The notes under the pieces: model-generated
Database searches by the model: none
What the model saw: the letters and a program-made list of their open reading frames with translations, nothing else
What the model was told of the DNA's origin: nothing
NCBI GenBank assembly: GCA_051294375.1
Contig: JBJCIZ010000104.1
Coordinates: 1 to 26,069, forward strand
Direction of reading: 5' to 3'
DNA from: Paraspadella gotoi
Lineage: Eukaryota; Animalia; Chaetognatha
DNA: 26,069 nt
Position numbers and translations under genes: made by a program
Shown here: piece by piece, positions 4,557-26,069 of the stretch
Position numbering within the stretch: position 1 is the first letter of the stretch
Layout: the number at the start of each line of letters is the position of its first letter

Positions 4557-4815
4557 GAAAAAAAAAAAAAAAAACAAAAAACAACACAAACAAAAAACTA
4601 ACAAGTAAAATTAAAACATGACAACAGGTTAAATAACTTTAATCAAAAAAAAAATAAATAAAAATAACAAAAATAAAAATAAAATAAGCATGAAAAAAAA
4701 ACAAAAAATTAAAAAAAAAAAAAAAATTAAAAAATATACATAAAATAAAAAAAAAATAAAAATAAAAGAAAAAAATAAATAAAAAAATAAAAATAACAAA
4801 AAAAAAGATAAAAAC

Positions 4816-4846
<31 letters not shown>

Positions 4847-4895
4847 TAAAAATAAAAAAATTCAAAAAATGACAAAATAAAAAAATAAATCGACC

Positions 4896-4932
<37 letters not shown>

Positions 4933-5039
4933 GAAAAGCAATTACAACATTCAAAAAAAAAAACTAGATAACCGAAAAAACAGAAAAAAAAAACATAAAA
5001 AAAAAACAAAAAAAAAAAAACAAAAAAAAGAAAAAAACA

Positions 5040-5081
<42 letters not shown>

Positions 5082-5400
5082 AGAAAAAAGAAAAAAAAAA
5101 AAAAAAATAAAAAAAAAACAATTAAAGGAAAATTAACAAAATAAATAATAAAAATAAAAAAAAAGAATAATAAAATAAAAGAAAAATAAAAAAAAAAAAA
5201 AAAAAAAAAAACAAAAAAAAAAAGAAAAAAAAAAGAAAAAAAACCAAAAAAAAAAAAAAAAAAAAAAGATGAAAAAAAAAAGAAAAAAAAAAAAAAAAAA
5301 AAAATAAAACAGATAAAAAAAAAAATCAAGAAAAAAAAATAACAAAAAAAAAAAAAAGAACACAAAAAAGAAAAAAACATAAATAAATAAGAAAAAACTT
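4557..5400. repeat. Extremely A-rich low-complexity tract, likely long-read base-calling artefact or a garbled repeat
   Basis: A-runs of up to ~30 nt interrupted by isolated bases; source of the poly-F ORFs. Confidence 0.85.
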
Positions 5401-8651: not shown

Positions 8652-8745
8652 TCCTATGCAAGGCTTACTTTCTTTTTCCGCTTCATTAAGCTACACTTTT
8701 ACTTCTTCCAGCATCTTCTTCGTTTTCCAGCCCTCGCTTCCAGCG

Positions 8746-8788
8746 TCATCATCATCATCATCATCAGCATCATCATCGTTCATCATCT
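8746..8788. repeat. (ATC)n microsatellite just upstream of the satellite array
   Basis: Directly visible. Confidence 0.85.
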
Positions 8789-8811
8789 TTGTTCATTCCC
8801 CCAGGTCCCCC

Positions 8812-11800
8812 CACTAAGGATCCTCAATAGGGTGGACAGCAGAAAATTTTTCCCAGCCTCGCTACCCAGCACCATACGACCTACACTAAGGATCCTCAAT
8901 AGGGTGACAGCAGAAAATTTTTTCCAGCCTCGCTACCCAGCCCTAACGACTACACTAAGGATCCTCAATAGGGTGGACAGCAGAAAATTTTTCCCAGCCT
9001 CGCTACCCAAGCCCTAACGACTACACTAAGGATCCTCAAATAGGTGGACAGCAGAAAAATTTTCCCAGCCTCGCTACCCAGCCCTAACGAGCTACACTAA
9101 GGATCCTCAATAGGGTGGACAGCAAAAAATTTTCCCAGCCTCGCTACCCAGCCCTAACGACTACACTAACGATCCTCAATAGGGTGGACAGCAGAAAATT
9201 TTTCCCAGCCTCGCTAGCCAGCCTAACGACTACACTAAGGATCCTCAATAGGGTGACAGCAGAATTTTTCCCAGCCTGCTACCCAGCCTAAGCACTACAC
9301 TAAGGATCCTCAATAGGGTGGAACAGCAGAAAATTTTTCCCAGCCTCGCTACCCAGCCCTAACGACTAACACTAAGGATCCTCAATAGGTGGACAGCAGA
9401 AATTTTCCCAGCCCTCGCTACCCAGCCCTAACGGACTACACTAAGGATCCTCAATAGGGTGGACAGCAGAAAATTTTCCCAGCCTCGCTACCCAGCCCTA
9501 ACGACTACCACTAAGGATCCTCAATAGGGTGGACAGCAGAAAATTTTTCCCAGCTCGCTACCCAGCCCTAACGACTACACTAAGATCCTCAATAGGGTGG
9601 ACAGCAGAAATTTTTCCCAGCCTCGCTACCCAGCCCTACGACTACACTAAGGATCCTCAATAGGGTGGACAGCAGAAAATTTTTCCCAGCCTCGCTACCC
9701 AGCCCTAACGACTACCATAAGGATCCTCAATAGGGTGGACAGCAGAAAATTTTTCCCAGCCTCGCACCAGCCCTAACGACTACACTAAGGATCCTCAATA
9801 GGGTGGACAGCAGAAATTTTTTCCCAGCCTCGCTACCCAGCCCTAACGACTACACTAAGGATCCTCAATTAGGGTGGACAGCAGAAAATTTTTCCCAGCC
9901 TCGCTACCAGCCCTAACGACTATACTAATGATCCTCAATAGGTGGACAGAGAAATTTTTTCCTCAGCTCTCGTCTACCCAGCCCTAACGACTACACTAAG
10001 GATCCTCAATAGGGTGGACAGCAGAAAATTTTTCCCAGCCTCGCTACCCGCCCTAACGACTACACTAAGGATCCTCATAGGTGGACAGCAGAAAATTTTT
10101 CCCAGCCTCGCTACCCAGCCCTAACGACTACACTAAGGATCTCAATAGGTGGACAGCAGAAAATTTTTCCCAGCCTCGCTACCCAGCCTAACGACTACAC
10201 TAAGGATCCTCAATAGGGTGGACAGCAGAAAATTTTTCCCAGCCTCGCTACCCAAGGCCCTAACGACTACAGCTAAGGATCCTCAATAGGGTGGACAGCA
10301 GGAAATTTTTCCCAGCCTCGCTACCCAGCCCTAACGAGACTACACTAAGGATCCTCATAGGGTGGACAGCAGGAAATTTTCCCAGCTCGCTACCCAGCCC
10401 TAACGACTACACTAAGGATCCTCAATAGGGTTGGACAGCAGAAAATTTTCCCAGCCTCGCTAGTCCCAGCCCAACGACTACACTAAGGATCCTCAATAGG
10501 GTGGACAGCAGAAAATTTTTCCAGCCTCGCTACCCAGCCCTAACGACTACACTAAGGATCCTCAATAGGGTGGACAGCAGAAAATTTTTCCAGCCTCGCT
10601 ACCCAGCCTAACGACTACACTAAGGATCCTCAATAGGGTGGACAGCAGAAATTTTTTCCCAGCCTCGCTACCCAGCCCTAACGACTACACTAAGGATCCT
10701 CAATAGGGTGGACAGCAGAAAAATTTTTCCCAGCCTCGCTACCCAGCCCTACGACTACACTAAGGATCCTCAATAGGGTGGACAGCAGAAAATTTTTCCC
10801 AGCCTCGCTACCCAGCCCTAACGACTACACAGGATCCTCAATAGGGTGGACAGCAAGAAAATTTTTTCCCAGCCTCGCTACCCAGCCCTAACGACTACAC
10901 TAAGGATCCTCAATAGGTGGAGCAGCAGAAAATTTTTCCCAGCCTCGCTACCCAGCCCTAACGACTACACTAAGGATCCTCAATAGGGTGGACAGCAGAA
11001 AATTTTTACCCGCCTCGCTACCCAGCCCTAACGACTACACTAAGGATCCTCAATAGGGTGGACAGCAGAAATTTTTCCCAGCCTCGCTACCCAGCCCTAA
11101 CGACTACACTAGATCCTCAATAGGGTGGACAGCAGAAAATTTTCCCAGCCTCGCTACCCAGCCCTAACGACTACACTAAGGATCCTCAATAGGGTGGACA
11201 GCAGAAAATTTTTCCCAGCCTCGCTACCCAGCTCTAACGCTACATAAGATCCTCAATAGGGTGGACAGCAGAAAATTTTTTCCCAGCCTCGTACCCAGCC
11301 CTAACGACTACACTAAGGATCCTCAATAGGGTGGACAGCAGAAAATTTTTCCCAGCCTCGCTACCCAGCCCTAACGACTACACTAAGGATCCTCCAATAG
11401 GTGGGACAGCAGAAATTTTCCCAGCCTCGCCTACCCAGCCCTAACGAACTACACTAAGGATCCTCAATAGGGTGGACAGCAGAAAATTTTTCCCAGCCTC
11501 GCTACCCAGCCCTAACGGACTACACTAAGGATCCTCATAGGGTGGGACAGCAGAAAATTTTTCCCAGCCTCGCTACCCAGCCCTAACGGACTACATAAGG
11601 ATCCTTCAATAGGGTGGACAGCAGAAAATTTTTCCCAGCCTCGCCTACCCAGCCCTAACGACTTACACTAAGGATCCTCAATAGGTGTGGGACAGCGAAA
11701 ATTTTTCCCAGCCTCGCTACCCAGCCCTAACGACTACACTAAGGATCCTCAATAGGGTGGACAGCAGAAAATTTGTTTCCCAGCCGGACTACCCAGCCCT

Positions 11801-13509
11801 ACACGACTACACTAAGGATCCTCATAGGGTGGACAGCCAGAAATTTTTCCCAGCATCGCTACCCAGCCCTAAACGCACTTACACTAAGGATCCTCAATAG
11901 GGTGGACAGCAGAAAATTTTTCCCAGCCTCGCATACCCAGCCCTAAGACTACACTAAGGATCCTCAATAGGTGGACAGCAGAAAATTTTTCCCAGCCTCG
12001 CTACCCAGCCCTAACGACTACACTAAGGATCCTCATAGGGTGTACAAGCAGAAAATTTTTCTCCAGCCTCGCTACCAGCCCTAACGACTACACTAAGGAT
12101 CCTCAATAGGGTTGGACAGCAGAAAATTTTCCCAGCCTCGCTAACCCAGGCCCTAACGACTACACTAGGATCCTCAATAGGGTGGACAGCAGAAAAATTT
12201 TCCCAAAAGCCTCGCTACCAGCCCTACGACATCACTAAGGCATCTCAATAGGTGTGACAGCAGAAATATTTTCCCAGCCTCGCGCTACCCAGCCTCTAAC
12301 GACTACACTAAGATCCTCAATTAGGGTGGACAGCAGAAAATCTTTTCCCAGCCTCGCTACCCAGCCCTAACGACTACACTAAGGATCCTCCATAGGGTGG
12401 ACAGCAGAAAATTTTTCCCAGCCTCGCTACCAGCCCTACGACTACACTAAGGATCCTCAATAGGGTGGACAGCAGAAAATTTTTCCCAGCCTCGCTACCC
12501 AGCCTAACGACTACACTAAGGATCCTCATAGGGTGGACAGCAGAAAATTTTTCCCAGCCTCGTACCCAGCCCAACGACTAGCACTAGGATCCTTCAATAG
12601 GGTGGACAGCAGGGAAAATTTTTCCCAGCCTCGCTACCAGCCCTAACGATACACATCAGGATCCTCAATAGGGTGGACAGCATGAAATTTTTCCCAGACC
12701 TCGCTACCCAGCCTAACGACTACACTAAGGATCCTCAATAGGGTGGACAGCAGAGAAATTTTTCCCAGCCTCGCTACCCAGCCCTTAACCGACTACACTA
12801 AGGATTCCTCAATGAGGTGGACAGCAGAAAATTTTTCCCAGCCTCGCTAACCCAGCCCTAACGACTACACTAAGGATCTCAATAGGGTGGACAGCAGAAA
12901 ATTTTTCCCAGCCTCGCTTACCACAGCCCTAACGATCCGTACACCTAAGGATCCTCAAGATAGCGGTGCGACAGCAGAAAATTTTTCCAGCCCGCTACCC
13001 AGCCTACGGACTACAACTAAGGATCCTCAATAGGGTGTGACAGGCAGAAAATTTTCTTCCCCAGCACCATCGCTATAGACACCCAGCCCTAACGACTTAC
13101 ACTAAGGATCCTCAATAGGGTGGACGCAGAAAATTTTTCCCAAGCCTCGCTACCCAGCCCTAACGACTCACTAAGATCTCAATAGGGTGACAGCAGAAAA
13201 TTTTCCCGCCTCGCTACCCAGCACAACGACTACACTAAGGATCCTCAATTAGGGTGGACAGCAGAAAATTTTTTCCCAGCCTCGCTACCGCAGCCCTAAC
13301 GACTACATAAGGATCCTCAATAGGGTGGACAGCAGAAAATTTTTCCCAGCCTCGCTACCGCCCTAACGACTACACTAAGTCCTCATAGGGTGGAAGCAGA
13401 AAATTTTCCAGCCTCGCTCCCAGCCCTAACGACTACACTAAGGATCCTCGAATAGGGTGGACAGCAGAAAATTTTTCCCAGCCTCGCTACCCAGCCCTAA
13501 CGACTACAC
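8812..13509. repeat. Tandem satellite array, 70-bp unit (CACTAAGGATCCTCAATAGGGTGGACAGCAGAAAATTTTTCCCAGCCTCGCTACCCAGCCCTAACGACTA), roughly 67 copies, one BamHI site per unit
   Basis: Directly visible; period 70 (e.g. TAAGG at 10971 and 11041); no unique spacers; differences between copies are mostly 1-2 nt indels. Confidence 0.98.
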
Positions 13510-13923
13510 CAGAACGCGCTATGGTGATTCATTAAGCCACCAGCCCACCCACCTCCGAAATTTTGATTCATTTTTATAAGCCAACATAAATAGTTTGGTT
13601 TTCATTGTATTGATGATCAAACAATAGCTAAGTATCGTTTTTTTATACCTAAAATATTTTTATTGATTTATATTTTTGTTTAAAATATGAAGTATATTAT
13701 AATATAAAAAAGAAGAATTAATTTAAAAATAAAAATATTTAAGTTAAACGACTCATGATTTTTTTAATAGTTACTGCAATATGTAAATCATATTTAGTTA
13801 AAACCATTAGAAGATTGGAGTTAGTAGGGAACTAATGTAATGAATGATTTAGAGAAAAAGTTTTATTTTTTTTTTATACATTAACGGACATATAACGATT
13901 GATAAATCACCACAAGCGTCCTG
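13510..13923. mobile_element. Degenerate MITE-like element with ~25-bp terminal inverted repeats starting CAG
   Basis: CAGAACGCGCTATGGTGATTCATTAA (13510-13535) vs reverse complement of 13899-13923 CAGGACGCTTGTGGTGATTTATCAA; AT-rich non-coding interior; no target-site duplication seen. Confidence 0.6.
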
Positions 13924-14662: not shown

Positions 14663-15448
14663 TGGAAAGATTTCACGAAACATGTTTAGGATAAAAACTC
14701 TACCCGATTTTTGTTTGTATCTTTTAATACTTTTCAACCTGGAAATATCATTTTATAAATTGATGTAACTTTTAGGGGCACAATGTAGCCCAAAGCCCGT
14801 TTCCTTAATTCAATTCAATTCTCTCTCTGTCTATACTTCTTTTTTTCCCTCTTTTTCTCTCCCTTCCTCTAAATCAATCTTCGCTTTTTATTCTCTTCCA
14901 ATAAAAAAACATTTAAAAAATACAAAAATAAAATAATCTTTCTGACAACCAAACGGAAGCAAAATATTTAATAATTATAACGTTTCTATTAAGAGAGTAA
15001 AAATATTTCATTTTTATCAATGATCTTTTAGTGGCTTTCCAGCCTGCATTAAATTTTTTAAAAAATTTAAAGTCAAAAGACTCCTACCTTTTGTTTACCA
15101 TTTTTGAGCCGTAACACTAGAGGTTCAATTCACCACAAACATGTCTGCCTCTATAGGATTTGGGAATTTCTAAGAATTCCCGTTCTTTGAACGTTTATAC
15201 TCCGTGTCCGTTCGCGAATGACACCCCAAAAAAATTAATATACTTTAAATATCAAATATATTTTGATAACGACTGGACGTATTTTGTTTGCAAGTTTCTT
15301 TGTTTAATTTATTTACTAATTTTAATCTACTATTTTATTGATTTTTATCGAACAAAATAAAATTGGAGTAAAAAGACCATTTTAAGCGTGTTCTTGATTG
15401 AATTAAAGAAATCGCTATGGTGGACTAAAATCCACCAACCGTTCATCA

Positions 15449-15520
15449 GCGGCCATTGGTGCCGGAGGCAAGTCATTCGCCTCCCAACCCAAAGGTCAGG
15501 GGTTTTAGCCCGGTGGCCGC
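15449..15520 (+). pseudogene. Degenerate tRNA-like sequence (tRNA pseudogene or head of a tRNA-derived SINE)
   Basis: 72 nt; 7-bp acceptor-like stem GCGGCCA/TGGCCGC; A-box-like TGGTGCCGGAGG; B-box/T-arm-like GGGGTTTTAGCCC; CGCCTCCCAA resembles a tRNA-Gly anticodon region, but the anticodon stem does not pair well. Confidence 0.55.
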
Positions 15521-15880
15521 CTAGCAGTTAAGAGGGACGGGGCGCTTAACCCGCCTGTAACACGGTGTTACAGCCTGATCCGAAGCTCAGGGACTGCTTA
15601 TATTGAACGGTTCTGTCACTTTCACATAACAATAATTACTGTCTCTTCATCGCCAACGATATTTTCATAAATTAAATTTATAAAAAATTGCAAGATTATT
15701 TGTTTTACTAAATTAGACTTGGAAATTTTAGATTAAAATTTTAAAATAGATGTAAGAATTTAATAAATTTCGCTATATATTAAATTTAATTATATTATAA
15801 GTTTTCATTGATAAATTTGTAAAATTAGGGGAAAATTGTGTCATGATCATGTTCTTAACTGTTAATAATCATTTTGGCAT

Positions 15881-16618: not shown

Positions 16619-17357
16619 TCTCCATAATTTTTTTGTCACAATAATTATCAGTATTAGATCGTTCAAAAAAAGAGTATTGACTTAAATAAATATTAAATTA
16701 ATTTTAATTATAATAAAATAATTTATTTTGACAACGATGGTTTTATTTACAGAAAGAACAGATATGTTATTAGGTATGGACTCTTTTTTGGAGTCTTAGT
16801 GCAAATTTGATCGAAAACAGTGGAAACGTCGGTTTGTTCTGTAAATAAACACATCGTTTATGAAACAAACGAATTACTTGAATTATTAAACGTCAACTAC
16901 TCTGCTATAACATAAAATAAAATTTCAAAAGTATTCATCTAATAAGAAATGGTAAGGATTTTTTTGAAGTCACTCGCGAATGGACACGAGGTATTTTGAT
17001 TGTTTATCACTTTTTGGACGACTAAACTACCTCATTTATGTTTGTGTCTTTTTCTTACTGTGAAGTCCAGACGACAATCTCTCGTGCTCTTTTATATCGG
17101 AGATATTTACGTCCGTCTCCGTCTCTTTTGCGATCATTCGAAATTCTGCATTAAAACGGGACTCTTCCAAAATAATAAACCTACGTTGACGCTTTGTGAA
17201 CGCTCGTGGACATTTGTAGACGCTTAAATAAACAGTACGGCGCCCGCTGATCCCGGAGTCTTCAGCAAGATTCTGTCCACATTGTAGCGCTCATTACGCC
17301 TCCCTGTACCTGTTGACATTTTAGACGGACGGACCGGCGGGTCATAACACAAAGAAC

Positions 17358-18194
17358 ATGTCGAGCAAAGCCAAAAAAAGAAGATTGGTGACAATTGATG
17401 AAGCATTATCCAAAAAGAAAGAATGTGGTAGTTCTTTGGTCGTTGCTCTTTGGGCCATAGAAGAATACCAGGCCGAACTCAAGCTAATAGGCATCGATGA
17501 AGATTCGTCGGTTGTGAAGCGCGCCAAAACACGTGTTGCAAATTTTTTTCGTAAACAGCAGAAATCAAAATCTAAGTTAGCGACGAAAATTTCTGAAGGG
17601 CCGCTGTTGACCAAAAGTATGCAGACTCTTCTAACACCATCTGAACTCGTCCCCAAACCGAAAGAGAAGAGGAAACCAGGCAGACCTCGCGCGGAAACTC
17701 TAGATGACATCTCATCGCGCTATCAAACGGAAAAATTAAAGCCTATTGTTGCAAGTCTTCGTAAAATAGCTCGTCAACTCGGGAAGACGGTGACACAGTT
17801 ATGCGGCCGGATAATCCAGATGGAAAACTACGTACATGACCGTCATCTCGGGGAATTTGGAAAACGTATATATGACGAATCGTTCGAAGCTACTAAAGAA
17901 AAACGTCTCATGACAGTGGAAGAGGGTATGTTCATGAAATATCATGAACTGGAACTTTCCGTACGACAATGGACCGATCTACGTCTCCGCTGTTTAAAGT
18001 ATGGATTAAGTCTTCCTACCGCCAAGAATATTTTAAATTTTGAGAAGGATTTGTTGTATTCTCACATTGAGTTTGAAGGTGGTGTTCGGTCAACGCTTCC
18101 AGAAATTTTTCAAAAAACACTTCAACGAACATGCCTCCTTCCCGAAGTGCTTGAAAGCTTCAAAACTCTGGAAGAAAGCTCCTTTCCATTGAAG
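17358..18194 (+). CDS. RAG1-like gene, coding exon 1 (N-terminus, NBD-like GRPR motif, DDBD, pre-RNH region)
   Basis: ORF 17358-18317 up to donor AAG|GTACAT at 18194/18195. GRPRAETLDDISSRYQTEKLKP resembles the RAG1 nonamer-binding segment [20 protein letters not shown]. Confidence 0.88.
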
Positions 18195-20522
18195 GTACAT
18201 AAATATGTTGGTAAAATTTTACTTTCGCCGACCGGGGTTTTGGCGTCTTTTGAAAAACTATTTAAAAATATTTATTTAAAAAAAAAAATAAAACCTAATA
18301 ACCCTAAACCCTTTTAACCCTAACCACCCCTAACCCTAAACGACCCCAAAACCACCTAAAACCCCCCTTAAACCCGGTTGGCCAAAGTAAAATTAACCCT
18401 TCAAGGGGCATGATATCAATAACTACATTTTTGTAATATTTAAATTATTATTTAAATTTATATCAGGCTCGCTGGCTCACTGGTTTTGATGGCTCCGGAG
18501 ATCAGCATTCTTTGATGCAAGCCCCCAAGAATAAAGTCTCTCAAGAGCAACGAGAAACAATTGTTTCTTGCCTGAGGGATATTTCAACAGCGGATGAAAT
18601 AAAAATTTACACAAATTCCCACATTGCTTCTCCTTCCGGCATTCGACCATACATGATAATTCCACAAAAGGAAAATCGAGAACTCTTGGAAAAGTTTTTA
18701 CCAATAATGGATCGAGAGAAAAAAGTTGTTGAAGAAGATGGTACTAAAGTGACATTGCCAAATGATACTAAAATTCACTTCGACCATAAAGTAGAACTGA
18801 GATTGGCTGACGGGAAAGCGATGAAAGAGGCAGCTGGAACTGGTGGGGCATTTTGTATGTACTGCGTTTGCACAACGAAAGACGCTCAGACACTAGAAAA
18901 GATTGACGCCGGTTTTCCAATAAACCGTACAATAGAACAAATACATTCCATTTTTCAATTGCTGAAAGATACAGAATCAGGAGAAATACCAAGACGACGT
19001 GACGATTATGAAGAACGCAAAGGGGTCACCCAACGACCTCTCACTGACCAAAGCATTAACTTATCTCCTCGTCCTCTACACCTTCGCCTTTGCACATACA
19101 AGTTTTTTCAGAACTTTTTATTTAGACTAAAAGCGAATGTTAAGCTTTGGCAAGGCAAACATCTAACCGACAAACAAAAAGAGAAACTGGAAAAAGCTCG
19201 TCACGATTGCATCCGGGAAATCGCAGCCAAGACAGGGATTGTGATCGACACTCCAACTGCTCGAGGTTAAACAAAAGAGAATATTTTTCTTATTTTGGTT
19301 TTATTTTCGTTCTTGACATTAAAATTTAGTGGTTAAAGAACAAAAATTATTTATAATTAAAAAAATTTTGTTTTTTATAAATATTTTTTAAAATAATAAA
19401 GATCGAAAATAAATCTAATAATAGCGAATGGCTAGCTTGTTATTTTTCATTGATATAATTCATTCAATCATTCATTTCAATTCATTCATTCACTTTATTC
19501 ATTTAACTTTTTTTAGGCGGAACCTCAGATACTGGAAACGCCGCATGGAGATTTTTTTCCTCTGAATTTGTTCCCATTTTGGAATTGCTTTTACCTCCGG
19601 AAACTAAAGAAAAAGTCCTTTTATTGCATTACCAGTTATCTATCATTCTTCGAGTCATATCTTCAAAACGACGGGTTGATACTGAGCGGCTTAGACAGAC
19701 TTGTATGACCACGTATCATTCTCTCGTTCAATCTTTTCCTTGGATTAGCATCAGCGAGAGTCTACACGCAGTGCTTGGCCATTCATACCAGCTCATAAGT
19801 CTTAATGATGAATACGGTCTTGGCCAAATGACAGAACAAGGGTCGGAGGGACTAAACAAATTCGTTCGACGCTTCAGTGAACGTAATGCTCGACAGACAA
19901 AACTCGAGGACAACATAACAGATGTCTTCAAACGACTCCAGCTTCGCTCCGACCCAGTCATCCTTACATTTAAAAGAAATCCTTACTGCAGTATTTGTAA
20001 ACTTCATGGGGATCATTTTACCATTGCCTGCCATTCAAAGAAGGTCCAAGTGTCCGTCGCTAAAACCGCTATGCAATCTTTGGATGATGAGGTCGAATCT
20101 TTTTTTCCAGGTAAGATAAACTATTTTTTGATTCATTGAAATTTTATGTATTCTCTGGTTTAGCGATTATAAGATATACATATAATTTGATAATGGTTCG
20201 TGGTTCCGATTGCCCTCGGCGTCCATAAACTGAATGACAACTGTGGTTTGACCTATGTAATCACAATTTGTATGTTAACATCATTTAGTTTTTTCATAAG
20301 AAGATAAAATATTACGTTTATTGAAAATTTTGCCTTTCCTGTTACAATTGCTCTATTAAGATTATAATCTGAGCAGATTGTCGCTTTTCACATATAACTA
20401 ATAACTGTAATAGATAATTTAAGTAAATGTTAAATTTTTTTTTCAAGCAGTATTTTTAAATGTCATTCATAAATTATTTCTTAGGTGACGATGATGCCTC
20501 TACAACATCGACATCTTCTTAA
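17358..20522 (+). CDS. RAG1L: RAG1-like (Transib/RAG1L superfamily) DDE transposase/recombinase, spliced, ~755 aa; exons 17358-18194, 18467-19265, 19517-20110, 20485-20522 (alternative unspliced end at stop 20139, ~752 aa)
   Basis: Three same-strand ORFs join in frame at canonical GT-AG sites (AAG|gtacat...tatcag|GCT, phase 0; CGAG|gttaaa...ttttag|GC, phase 1; CCAG|gtaaga...ttag|GT, phase 1). The joined protein carries RAG1/Transib motifs in order: KPGRPR (NBD-like), LSVRQWTDLR...LPTAKNILNFEK (DDBD-like), TGFDGSG (first catalytic D), SPSGIRP, LADGKAM (second D), FCMYC (Zn), RKGVTQRP, PLH, GGTSDTGNAAWRFF, LHAVLGH (Zn), TEQGSEGLNKFVRRFSERNARQ (catalytic E), DVFKRLQLRSDP. No internal stops or frameshifts. 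Confidence 0.93.
18210..18398. mobile_element. Small MITE-like foldback element with (TAACCC)-like core inside intron 1 of the RAG1-like gene
   Basis: GGTAAAATTTTACTTTCGCCGACCGGGGTTT (18210-18240) vs reverse complement of 18370-18398 GGTTAATTTTACTTTGGCCAACCGGGTTT; degenerate AACCCT repeats 18290-18372. Confidence 0.7.
18467..19265 (+). CDS. RAG1-like gene, coding exon 2 (RNase H fold with two catalytic Asp, ZnC2)
   Basis: Acceptor tatcag at 18461-18466; the exon reads ARWLTGFDGSG... (D codon 18488), LADGK (D codon 18809), CMYC, PLH; donor GTTAAA at 19266. Confidence 0.92.
19517..20110 (+). CDS. RAG1-like gene, coding exon 3 (ZnH2, catalytic Glu, CTD, Cys/His tail)
   Basis: Acceptor ttttttttag ending 19516 restores GGTSDTGNAAWRFF across the junction; HAVLGH; SEGLNK (E codon 19846); CSICKLHGDHFTIAC at 19987-20031; donor CAG|GTAAGA at 20110/20111. 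Confidence 0.9.
20485..20522 (+). CDS. Probable short terminal coding exon of the RAG1-like gene (GDDDASTTSTSS*)
   Basis: Strong donor at 20111 and acceptor ttcttag ending 20484 are phase-compatible; composition shifts from AT-rich to balanced at this point. Not provable without RNA. Confidence 0.5.
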
Positions 20523-20602: not shown

Positions 20603-20922
20603 GCCATCCACAACGTCTTTTGCGTCGCCATCCACAACGTCTTTTGCGGCGCCATCCACAACGTCTTTTGCGGCGCCATTCACAACGTCTTTTTTCGGCG
20701 GCATCCACGTCTTTTGCGGCGCCATCTACAACGTCTTTTGCGTCGCCATCCACAACGTCTTTTATCGGCGCCATCCACAACGTCTTTTATCGGCGCCATC
20801 CACAACGTCTTTTGCGGCGCCATCCATGTCTTTTGCGACGCCATCCTCGTCTTCAACGGCGCCTTCCGCAACCTCTTTTGCGTCGCCATCCACAACATCT
20901 TCAATGGCCCCTTCCGCAACTG
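20603..20922. repeat. 24-bp minisatellite (GCCATCCACAACGTCTTTTGCGGC), ~13 degenerate copies
   Basis: Directly visible; explains the repetitive ORFs (RHPQRLLR, FAAPSTTS, AIHNVFCG) in all frames. Confidence 0.93.
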
Positions 20923-21895
20923 TAAGAGATGATGATTTAATATGATCTTAAATGAGATTGAATTTCTCAATCTCATTTAAATATATATATATACATATAC
21001 AAATGAGTTCCTTTTAAATTTGGATTTCAGTATTAGTTAAGTTTTTCAGTAGTTAAATATAGTATTTAGCAATGTTAATGATTATCATCAACTTTAGTAA
21101 TATTTCAACTAAGTAATTAATAATAATTATTTTTCACTTTATTAGAGTTTGACTTGCTCATTAAAGCATAGTAAAAAGTTTAAATTTAACTTAAATTAAA
21201 ATTCTAAATGTGAGGAATGAACAACGTTGTAATAATGAATATTAATGTAAAAAAAATTTTATTATAATTTTTGCAATTTATGCAGTAGGCTATATTTATA
21301 TATACTATAGTATTAACTCTATAAATGTTAAAATTTTAAAATGGTTTTTATATGATTTTTTTGCAGATTTGGATTCGTCATAATAATTCTTTCATTAAGT
21401 TGGTCAAAAATTTAAAAAACATATATTTTAAGCTGAAAATTTTTAATCTACTTAATAAAATTTTTTTTAAAAATGAGTTATATTTGCTTTTATCAACTTT
21501 TGACGAGGAAATTAAATCTGCCATCAAAATTAAGAAAAGTTCATTTTAAAATTTTAAGATTTTTTAAGGATAGTATTATATATATATATATTGGTATTAT
21601 ATTGGTTGTACCAATTTCATATATATTTATATATATACATACTGCAAAAATTAAAAAAATATCAAATTAATTTTTTAATAATTTAATGTTTAATTGTGGT
21701 ACGTTGTTTATAATTGACCATTAGAATTTCCATATGTGACTTTCACTACTCTCTATTGCTCAATATTTGGTGATTTCCTTATTCCTTCAGAAGTTGGTCG
21801 CATTGATTTTAATTAGAACATCCTAAACAGTAAATCAAAATAGTACCAAATTTTGTTCAGAAAGGTTTAATTATGTTTTCATTTCTCTACTTCAG

Positions 21896-23244
21896 GCAAG
21901 GTCCAGCACCTCCAGGAACACACGGCCGGTCAGTTTCAGGAGGTGGAATAAAAGCTTCAGGAGGGTCTCGATAAGCGGATGAATCTCCTCGAAAATGAGA
22001 TCGGGAACCACCAACGCGTCCTCATAGACCACGAAAACAATGTCGAGATAGAGGAGAGAATCGCCGCCCGCCATAACGAGAACCATCAAGGCCATCACAC
22101 CATGCTGGCCAAGATCAACGAAGGGTTGAACCTGTTGGAAGAGCAATTTTGCGAGTACTGCCGGCAGCTGGAACGCATCATGGCGGCGATCAAGCAGCGC
22201 CAGCAGAGGGACGTCTGGAGCCGCCAGCAGCTGGAGGGCGTGCAGGAGCAGGTCCGCCTCAGTGACCTCCTCTCGAACCTCAATGCAAAGGTTGCCTTGC
22301 TCACCCAGTGGCAAGAAATCACGCAGCAAGCCTTCACCATCTCCGCACGGCTCTCGGTTTCATTTGTTTTAAAACATTTCAAACACAACATTCAAAACAT
22401 TCAAAATATGCCTTAAATTTCATATTGCGTCAAAACAGTTTCTGGGAACGTATGGCAATCATTTACGAGACATGACGGACCTCCGGAGCAAATTGACGTA
22501 AACAACCGTTTGAGCGGCGAGGCGCTTCAAAGGACTTCTCCCGCTTCCAGGCATCGTTGGAGCAAGTCCAGATGGTCGCGAATAGCAGCGTCTCGGAGCA
22601 AAAGGTACTTGGATGTTTGACAAAGTTTCAGGTATTAAGGACCATTTTGTTGTTCGCAATATTCGGTAATTGATTCCTCGCTGTTTTCAGACCCCCTGAG
22701 ACAAAGAAAATCGCGGTATCTTTGCACAACTTCAAGAACATCAACAACAAGCTTCAAACAGAGACGTCAGCGCCTTGAAAGCGGAAATCAAGGCGCTGGA
22801 AGAAAAGTTGAGCAAGATCAAGGCGCAGTATTAAGAACAGTTTGAAATGCTTGGACTCTCCGCGCACGACGTTGGATCGGGTAAGTCGAAGGAGATTGCA
22901 AAGGAATTTAACGAGCTGATCCTAAAATTTTTATTCCTACCCCAGGATATTCAGCGTCGACGCGAGATCCCGCAAGCCTTTACGACGACCGTGGCGTTGG
23001 CAGCGAAAAGAGTCAGCAGCAGCAGCAGCCGCCTCTGACGCTACCCAAACCTAGGAAAAGCTTCGCAACTTCTTCGCCGGCGCCGTTCGCAACATCTTCG
23101 GCGGCGCTCTTTGCAGCGACTGTGCAACCTTGTTCGGCGGAGTCATCGGCCGCTCCACCAGTGAAAGAATCTTTATTGACGCGCCCTCCGCAGCGTTTTT
23201 GGCAGCCGCTTCTGCAGCGACTATCGCGTGAAAATTCTAAATGA
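21896..23244 (+). pseudogene. Four-exon coiled-coil protein pseudogene (exons 21896-22356, 22439-22604, 22691-22880, 22946-23244), unknown family
   Basis: GC-rich blocks separated by 82, 86 and 65 bp GT-AG introns; Q/E/L-rich heptad-like translation (e.g. VSALKAEIKALEEKLSKIKAQY); in-frame stops at 21949, 22499, 22697 and 22832 and a +1 frameshift near 22510; no start exon identified. Confidence 0.72.
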
Positions 23245-24610: not shown

Positions 24611-26069
24611 TCGCTCATAAGAAGCGAAAAAAAAAACGACCGCAACATCCCGATTGGCAAATGTAAAAATAAGCCAATACAAATATAGTATAAAAACGTT
24701 GGTAATACCTAAATTTCTTAATCATATGATAATACGTGAAAAGAAAGTCACTGCGGTGCAACACATCGGTTGGACCAATCATGTGATCTTTTGGAAATGC
24801 AGGCAAGTGATGAAATGGTCAATGCTAAATTGCCTTTGCTTGACAATGCTTGTAATCTTTGACGGAGCGAACATGTGATCCTAAAAATCGTGTAATATAA
24901 TCTATATTCTATAAATACTTGGCAGACGGATAAAGAAACATTAGTCGCTTAAGTGGATACCTTTTTTTGCTAGACTAGACCCGTGACCACCCTTTTTTGG
25001 GATTTTCGTCACATTCCTCATGCAATAACTAAAATATTTATTAATTTATATTTGTTTTCCTATTTATCTAGACTTTTTTGAAAATCTTTATCAAACTTTC
25101 GTTTTGCCAGATTGAGTCGTAGTTAATTTATATAGAATATAAAAATTTCGGAGTTGTTTACTTGTTTGTCTTACTACTCAAAAAATATTCAAAACCGAAG
25201 ACATCCGATTTGGGATAATACTCAAGAATGATAAAACTGTGTATTAAAATACATAATAATGCTTCGGTAGTATAACCATAGATAAGAAATAAACTTGTAT
25301 GTGGGGACAGAATAATCAGCAAAATTGTATGAGCGATATGTCCATAGTTTGCCCATTAATAACAATATTTTTAAAAAAAGAATTGTACCAGGAGATAGTT
25401 TAGGGATAACGCTTTTCGATTTTGTAAAAATTATTAACTATTTTAAGGTTTTAGTAATATTTTTATTGCACTAAATAACCAATTCTGTCGGAATTTTATT
25501 CAAATATGCATAAACTAGTCTACTTGCAAGTCAGATTTCTTTCTTAAAACGAAAAACCGCAAAAAACCGCAACAGGGGGTTATGTCTCAGAAGCCATCCC
25601 AGCGATTAAATGCCTTCTGAAGCTAAATTTCGATGATCCCTAAATATCCCGGCACCTTAAAGCTGAGCTTTATGAAAATCCTGGAGGCTCATTTCATTCT
25701 AAATCACTTTGCCAACTTAATGTTACCATATTGCGACTTTCTTTAAACAAATTAATTAAAAATATTATGTCAACAGAAACCTTAGCGAAAGAGCTGTTGA
25801 TTGATATAAAAAAATATATAGTTTTTAATAAAAAATAGTCATTTCGGACGTGATATAATGTTGTGGTAACCAAACGAGCAATCAAAAATTCAATTTGCAT
25901 CGTCAAGACCTAACGAAAATAAAAATTCCGTACCAAGACAAAACATCTAAATAACGTTTAATAGAAATGGCAAAGGACTTTAAAGACAAGATATTTGTCA
26001 AAAATTAATAGAAATTGCTAAAACGATAATATGACTTCCGGACATTTTCCACGGTGTGGAAACGCTGTG

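Follow-up and report, generated by a model that had tools for sequence, protein, structure and literature searches.

A tandem array of 70-bp units with features of a Transib-type transposon end, near a predicted transposase gene of Paraspadella gotoi

We analysed a stretch of 26,069 nucleotides from the chaetognath Paraspadella gotoi (contig JBJCIZ010000104.1, positions 1 to 26,069), called the window below. It carries a satellite array of 70-bp units at 8812-13509 on the plus strand and, further along the same strand, a predicted transposase gene of the Transib type. Our preferred explanation, to which we assign a probability of about one half, is that the array consists of the outer 70 bases of a Transib-type end, recently multiplied head to tail and neutral, and that this end is not the left end of the neighbouring gene's element. 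The unit itself probably originated as a transposon end. The initial annotation of this DNA had suggested that the array may be an amplified transposon end, oriented as a left end facing the neighbouring gene, and a substrate or decoy for its product. The origin as a transposon end is favoured by the CAC at the unit start, by the adenines at positions 34 and 35, by a GC-rich 5-mer in front of both copies that start at CAC, and by likeness to a published terminus; that the array is the left end of the gene's own element, or a substrate or decoy, is not supported.

The array has the overall form (unit)67+CAC and is seen with Tandem Repeats Finder (TRF), in the alignment of its units and in contigs of public reads. 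TRF, applied to the window, reports a period of 70 and 67.0 copies at 8812-13509, with 90% matches and 7% indels. When the array was aligned to 64-70 copies of its commonest 70-mer, the best-scoring count was 67, which agrees with the number given earlier. Unit 1 opens with CACTAAG at 8812, directly after CCCCC (8807-8811, plus strand), while the inner units are preceded by GACTA. The CCCCC is a possible GC-rich target 5-mer, of which a duplicate was found at no candidate partner end. The array closes with CAC (13507-13509, plus strand), in the phase in which it starts, so that its two edges share a 3-base microhomology. These bounds had been described before and are confirmed in the sequence. 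The CAC at the start and the CAC at the end are one fact and not two, because a tandem duplication over a 3-base microhomology yields the form (unit)67+CAC anyway. Between units there are 86 insertions, 90 deletions and 42 substitutions. Almost every one of these is confined to a single unit, and despite this noise the exact CACTAAG is present in 53 of the 67. Since the contigs that cover units 1 and 2 show the consensus at all five listed departures, the differences are likely to be mostly long-read errors, and the true units near-identical. No sign of a structured RNA or DNA was found in the unit (fold z-score of -1.57), with no Rfam match over the array and no tRNA. The 10-mer TTCATTAAGC is present on either side of the array (in the region 8682-8743 and at 13528-13537), with a P of about 0.02. 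A 22-mer resembling the unit is found at about 8722-8743 (P 0.06), and together they may be decayed remains of units or an artefact of the consensus.

The first 38 nucleotides of unit 1 (8812-8849, plus strand) are likely a Transib-type terminal inverted repeat (TIR). They comprise the heptamer CACTAAG, a 22-nt spacer and, at unit positions 30-38, the A-tract 9-mer AGAAAATTT, which includes A34 and A35. The same three parts had been named for every unit, and the unit alignment bears this out. In the available part of PMC1131882, the 38-bp Transib terminus is given as CACAATG, a spacer and AAAAAAATC, in which CAC and positions 34-35 are invariant. The unit has all five of these invariant positions, and its positions 32-35 read AAAA; five of the seven heptamer letters agree with CACAATG. 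The motif alone is weak, as CAC with A34 and A35 occurs somewhere, on either strand, in 18% of shuffled units. For an array edge to fall on one is rarer, at about 0.3%. Furthermore, the unit was compared with about 16 published termini, taken from the accessible supplement of PMC9435367. The best match is the predicted 3' TIR of MleTransib_2823, for which phase 1 of the unit is the best of 140 phases and 10 of the 11 letters at positions 27-37 agree. With gaps, the match has a P of 0.0016, or about 0.025 after correction for the roughly 16 termini, and its score is reached by none of the 302 other CAC sites of the window. Ungapped, the identity is 19/38, with a P of 0.006 (about 0.1 corrected).

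The region is present in nine public runs of a single organism, taken from three studies (P1, P2 and P3), and four of the runs (X1, X2, X5 and X9) were compared with two units and the left junction before them. X1 and X2 stem from a single sample, possibly the source of the window (P1), and X5 and X9 belong to the other studies. The comparison shows 25 of 111 matching pieces, and entries into the unit past phase 40 or so are hard to detect owing to errors in the query stretch. The left flank at 8790-8808 is without contig cover in all four runs and 8660-8789 was skipped as a repeat, so that the left junction is taken from the window itself. A 100-letter contig (70+30) crosses the junction between units in X2, X5 and X9, and a joint that goes back to the unit, as in a tandem, is found in X1 and X2. 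The unit contig has a depth of 819 in X2, about 2,960 in X1 and 3,341 in X5, whereas contigs of solo copies have about 10-50, which gives a rough ratio of about 20-120, depth not being the same as copy number. Tens of copies in one or a few arrays are plausible. A related repeat is far commoner: it appears as 31-letter contigs with a depth of 25,000 (X2 and X5, none in X9), corresponds to unit positions of about 25-60 with three differences (window 8907-8942), and may be a MITE (miniature inverted-repeat transposable element) family or a larger satellite.

Contigs of the same runs show that the unit also occurs in solo copies at other loci. Leaving out the row of the tandem junction, there are six rows in which a contig enters the unit and seven in which it exits. 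Entries are of three types. The first is at CAC (two rows, X2 and X5, from samples S1 and S2 of two studies), and its flank ends in an all-GC 5-mer; this solo copy lies in a 341-nt contig that holds 44 nt of the unit with one difference. The second is at phase 4, without CAC (three rows; X1, X2 and X5), and the third is at phase 20, with nine letters (one row, X1). Two of the three types thus fall at CAC or no more than 3 nt from it, the one at phase 4 lacking it, while the seven exits are scattered over four phases (36, 44, 57 and 59), in what is a partial view. Families with a common terminus have clustered outer and scattered inner edges, and the copies seen here resemble that pattern. Moreover, an all-GC 5-mer stands before CAC in both CAC-starting copies, the array edge and the solo copy, against 6 of 303 other CAC sites of the window. 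Three interiors of solo copies are absent from the window, a point against a place of the array in the element of the neighbouring gene. An 18-nt pattern of the unit had no viral and two bacterial matches, below the chance expectation for the 596 billion bases searched.

Several observations weigh against this explanation. The ungapped likeness of 19/38 is weak, being equalled by two of the 302 window sites and by two CAC sites in L001, a related metagenome locus of 2.9 kb, and CACTAAG has only four of the seven letters of CACAGTG, with which the compared ctenophore termini open. Neither a target-site duplication (TSD) nor a clear partner end was found for the array. According to the available part of bioRxiv 2026.08.26.747230, the TIRs and TSDs of Transib are labile, which weakens both the support from the motif and the argument from the absent TSD. 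To the left of the array, the possibly decayed letters that resemble the unit (P 0.06 and 0.02) would go with a satellite of greater age that does not have a transposon end as its edge. As for the solo copies, the commonest entry (3/6 rows) is at phase 4 and misses CAC, and the copy that starts at CAC shares the three C that stand before CAC in the window, so that the real boundary may be 3 nt farther from the unit. The contig comparison is also limited to 25 of the 111 pieces, and entries above a phase of about 40 are poorly detectable in it. Finally, an argument from the asymmetry of TIRs, described below, is borrowed from other families.

The strongest competitor of the preferred explanation, although an unlikely one, is that the array is an ordinary young satellite of a larger repeat family, with a breakpoint at a CAC microhomology, and that the Transib gene is adjacent by chance. 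The form (unit)67+CAC is the generic product of a microhomology duplication, and the frequency of CAC with A34 and A35 in shuffled units, the entry rows without CAC (half of the six) and the unit-like remains in the left flank all suit a plain satellite. Likewise, the related repeat of depth 25,000 matches the unit at about 25-60 only and not at its CAC end. However, a plain satellite would have its edge on such a site in only about 0.3% of arrays, and an independent solo copy, seen in two studies, begins at CAC behind an all-GC 5-mer. The clustering of entries with the scatter of exits, and the resemblance to one of the published TIRs (P about 0.025 when corrected), also speak for a transposon end and not for a plain satellite.

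The neighbouring gene is on the plus strand and is predicted, from GT-AG sites, to have four exons and three introns, which give an open frame of 755 amino acids. Its ATG, at 17358, is 3,848 nt from the array end, close to the 3.8 kb noted initially. Exon 1 (17358-18194) has a GRPR motif at residue 108. Exon 2 (18467-19265) holds D287, within GFDG, D394 and a CxxC at 409. Exon 3 (19517-20110) contains HxxxGH at 629, the catalytic E656 and, at 703, a CTT1-like knuckle of the form Cx2Cx3GxHx4C. Exon 4, up to the stop codon, is placed at 20485-20522 by its GT-AG sites only. The D-D-E triad (D287, D394 and E656) and the zinc ligands (CxxC at 409, H629 and H634) are present. The knuckle is one residue longer than the published motif and is also found in eight of ten close relatives. 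The GRPR is found in none of ten close intronless relatives, which have GRPT, GRPP, GRPA, GRPV or GAPC instead.

The 755-residue protein shows 44-49% identity to six relatives that lack introns and come from metagenome assemblies. Exon 3 matches HzTransib with an E-value of 1.7e-14 and RAG1 with 5e-4, and the E-values of a profile built from five relatives are 5.5e-24 (HzTransib), 1.2e-10 (BbeRAG1L) and 4e-7 (RAG1). A structural model was made of one relative, P0001, and not of the protein of the window (78 sequences, pLDDT 91); Foldseek aligns it to structures of RAG1 and HzTransib with E-values of about 1e-23, and its TM scores to RAG1 chains are 0.57-0.61. The alpha11-alpha12 region appears to be kept: profile positions 436-501 are 65 positions against 24 residues in HzTransib, and they align to BbeRAG1L. 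This region is lost in Subgroup II, while the CTT1 knuckle and the GRP motif mark Subgroup I (PMC9435367). The ctenophore elements in the supplement of that paper would also be of Subgroup I, to go by their tails and asymmetric ends, and motifs common to the protein and MleTransib_2823 were compared by eye only. We therefore assign the gene, by motifs and similarity and not by a tree, to the intact transposases of the Subgroup I type of Transib, and not to the RAG1L member of a RAGL pair. It had initially been called a RAG1-like recombinase, a name that fits less well for a sequence closer to Transib than to RAG1. Moreover, no RAG2L is seen: there was no kelch or PHD match in 16 open reading frames around the gene, among which short spliced exons could escape. 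Exon 1 has no Pfam match to the N-terminal RING and zinc region of RAG1L, and no second piece of a transposase was found in the window. Close relatives of the transposase are known only from metagenome contigs; related loci were found in 0 of 40 viral contigs and 0 of 59 prokaryote genomes. One of 218 candidate loci, L001 (2,913 nt), extends from a CT repeat until 500 nt past the stop codon; its positions 1-2913 were found to contain no TIR. Its gene is intronless, with the ATG about 45 nt behind the long CT run.

It was further considered whether the array could be the amplified 5' end of a large element that carries this gene, with a protein that recognises the unit and a 3' end past the window. 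We regard this as improbable. The 3.8 kb between array and gene would then be element interior and nested insertions. The orientation and proximity of the array are right for such an end, the gene is intact and its GRPR motif is suited to an A-tract, and the window stops 5.5 kb behind the stop codon, so that a partner could be outside. However, there is no inverted copy of the unit in those 5.5 kb, which are the rest of the window. Among 3,366 pairs of CAC and GTG, none has both a close inverted match and a 5-bp duplication. CCCCC is missing behind every candidate partner of 8812, and the ten best pairs agree with it at 3/5 letters at most. Array and gene together would make an element of more than 17 kb, with 3.8 kb of unrelated DNA between them, compared with 3-4 kb for the autonomous Transib elements described in the accessible part of PMC1131882. 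A weak inverted look-alike of the unit start, with the same heptamer and 23/38 identical letters, is found at 16764-16801 on the minus strand (shuffle P 0.011-0.032, post hoc). It faces the array, 557 nt before the ATG, and is without a TSD (16801 is followed by CAAAT). If real, it would close an old element that does not include the gene. The register of the A-tract also speaks against this origin. In all three published ctenophore TIR pairs of the available supplement, compared by eye, the 5' TIR has a spacer longer by 10 nt, and an A-tract at about 29-35 marks the 3' TIR. The unit has its A-tract in this 3'-type register and would thus point to a gene on the minus strand, while the actual gene is on the plus strand. 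That array and gene form one element is thus not shown, although a partner more than 5.5 kb past the stop codon is possible, and from the sequence it is likely that the array is not the left end of the element of the intact transposase gene. Three other sites were tried as the gene's own ends and rejected as being at chance level or having no TSD: CACAATG at 14779 (plus strand), behind AGGGG and 2.6 kb before the ATG; CACAGCG (minus strand) in the last bases of the window (26063-26069); and the pair 13550/25852, with 11/13 agreement.

Two readings in which the array has a task are very unlikely. One has about 67 intact signal ends of the RAG/Transib type bound and cut by the neighbouring transposase, which has both a GRPR motif for nonamer binding and a CTT1 clamp; the array would be a non-vertebrate tandem cassette of signals, used to titrate the enzyme or to bring about programmed breaks and changes of length, and this is a long shot. 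Slightly less credible still, the array would be kept for its function, as a sponge that titrates the transposase or as clustered sites of cutting, by which programmed breaks are made or the length is changed. CAC is indeed kept in the units, although arrays of intact TIRs are thought to be short-lived (PMC5932611, available part), and an intact enzyme gene is near. However, homogeneity is what is expected of a young neutral array, neither a sign of conservation nor a RAG2L is seen, and the low copy number, with depth ratios of about 20-120, fits one or a few loci. Nothing points to selection on the array or to a function of it. Least credible of all is an artefact of sequencing or assembly (a noisy long read or an amplification concatemer), at least as to length and position, which would go with the indel-rich private errors and the junk-like A-rich stretch at 4645-5400 as marks of unpolished sequence, but the tandem unit is found in contigs of three studies at depth ratios compatible with tens of copies.

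If the array is a multiplied Transib-type end, it may have arisen in three steps. A transposon end would have inserted behind a GC-rich 5-mer. Duplication of its outer 70 bp would have followed, through slippage or repair involving two CAC copies, at 1-3 and at 71-73, a route that is favoured because it fits the form (unit)67+CAC; a less parsimonious alternative is that one end inserted 70 bp inside a sister end. Finally, unequal exchange or rolling-circle copying may have expanded the dimer to an array of tens of near-identical units, a step suggested by the homogeneity of the units. The host of the array would be a non-autonomous or decayed element of a repeat family, of which the contigs show solo copies elsewhere, and the transposase gene would be a separate or nested insertion in a transposon-rich stretch. 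Dimers of transposable elements are reported to grow into arrays, and those that keep their termini intact have been suggested to be cut and to disappear earlier (PMC5932611, in the part available). Near-identical units with an intact CAC therefore suggest that the array is young or that the enzyme does not act on it.

Comparison with known systems places the array closest to Transib ends and to satellites born from transposons. As in the TIRs of Transib (PMC1131882; Subgroup I, PMC9435367; available parts), there is a CAC, A34 with A35, an A-tract 9-mer after 22-23 nt and an outer GC-rich 5-mer, and the 19/38 identity to one ctenophore TIR is about the 49% mean between families given in PMC1131882. 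Unlike in those TIRs, the heptamer is CACTAAG, there are 67 direct copies instead of one inverted pair, and there is no TSD or partner. Satellites derived from TIRs are on record, namely TIR-220 of Tetris and Xstir from the Xmix MITE (PMC9659126, available part), as are tandem arrays of the transposable elements hobo, Bari1 and P (PMC5932611). The array shares with them its homogeneous head-to-tail form, a likely source in the end of a DNA transposon, and probable growth by unequal exchange or rolling circle. However, it holds only the outer 70 bp, with the terminal CAC in each copy, while lasting arrays of whole elements have mostly lost their termini. Compared with the TIR satellites, the source here would be of a RAG-related superfamily, and the source element is not seen whole. 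In literature titles and abstracts, we found no Transib or RAGL end that had grown into an array; subscription papers and bioRxiv supplements lie outside this coverage.

The likeness to RAG systems is more limited. The heptamer agrees at six of seven letters with CACTATG of the amphioxus ProtoRAG, as had been noted, and as we confirmed against TR1 of PMC8289069 (ProtoRAG/RAGL: PMC8289069, PMC7204232 and bioRxiv 2023.08.20.553239, in part). The consensus of protostome RAGL TIRs is CACTWMCAAA... in the available part of PMC7204232; the unit fits only its first six letters (CACTWM) and has no AAA at positions 8-10. The RAG1 core fold, in the model of the relative P0001, the GRPR motif and the CTT1-like zinc knuckle are shared with ProtoRAG and RAGL. 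On the other hand, the window has no RAG2L and no N-terminal RING, and the protein is closer to HzTransib by sequence. With the 23-spacer recombination signal sequence (RSS), whose nonamer is ACAAAAACC (PMC1131882, in part), the unit shares CAC, a spacer of 22 nt (23 +/- 1 is allowed) and A at nonamer positions 5 and 6. It differs in its heptamer (4/7) and nonamer (5/9), in having a single class of spacer and one orientation, and in lacking coding segments between the copies. In a post hoc comparison, the letters CCTCAATAGG (unit positions 11-20) agree at 9/10 with the second of the conserved TIR elements in the algal AanRAGL (PMC9435367), where the spacing from CAC differs.

Other features of the window were noted. 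Noisy poly-A fills 750 nt at 4645-5400, as is usual in long-read sequence of poor quality, and the left part of the window may be unpolished. A GC-richer island at 15460-15530 looks by eye like a tRNA or a short interspersed element, and ARAGORN and Rfam find nothing there. The 10-mer CGCTATGGTG is present at about 15415 and also 9 nt behind the array end. Behind the gene, a 24-bp minisatellite of 12.7 copies lies at 20603-20901, with a similar motif near 23062, and plus-strand pieces at 21895-23244 resemble exons, with the look of a coiled coil and no Pfam match.

The array is likely a new variant among the satellites made of transposon ends, one composed of ends of the RAG type. Absent a link to the enzyme, it would be a further example of a satellite with its origin in transposon sequence, and it is likely a side product of transposon activity and not a working device. 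If the unit is a Transib end, the satellite would consist solely of ends of the RAG type, each copy retaining its cut site. It would then allow a direct test of the instability of tandem arrays with intact ends under an active transposase, and it would provide a candidate TIR for an unstudied marine branch of Transib of the Subgroup I type. Should the array be bound and cut, it would serve as a model for the seeding of RSS clusters from a transposon end.

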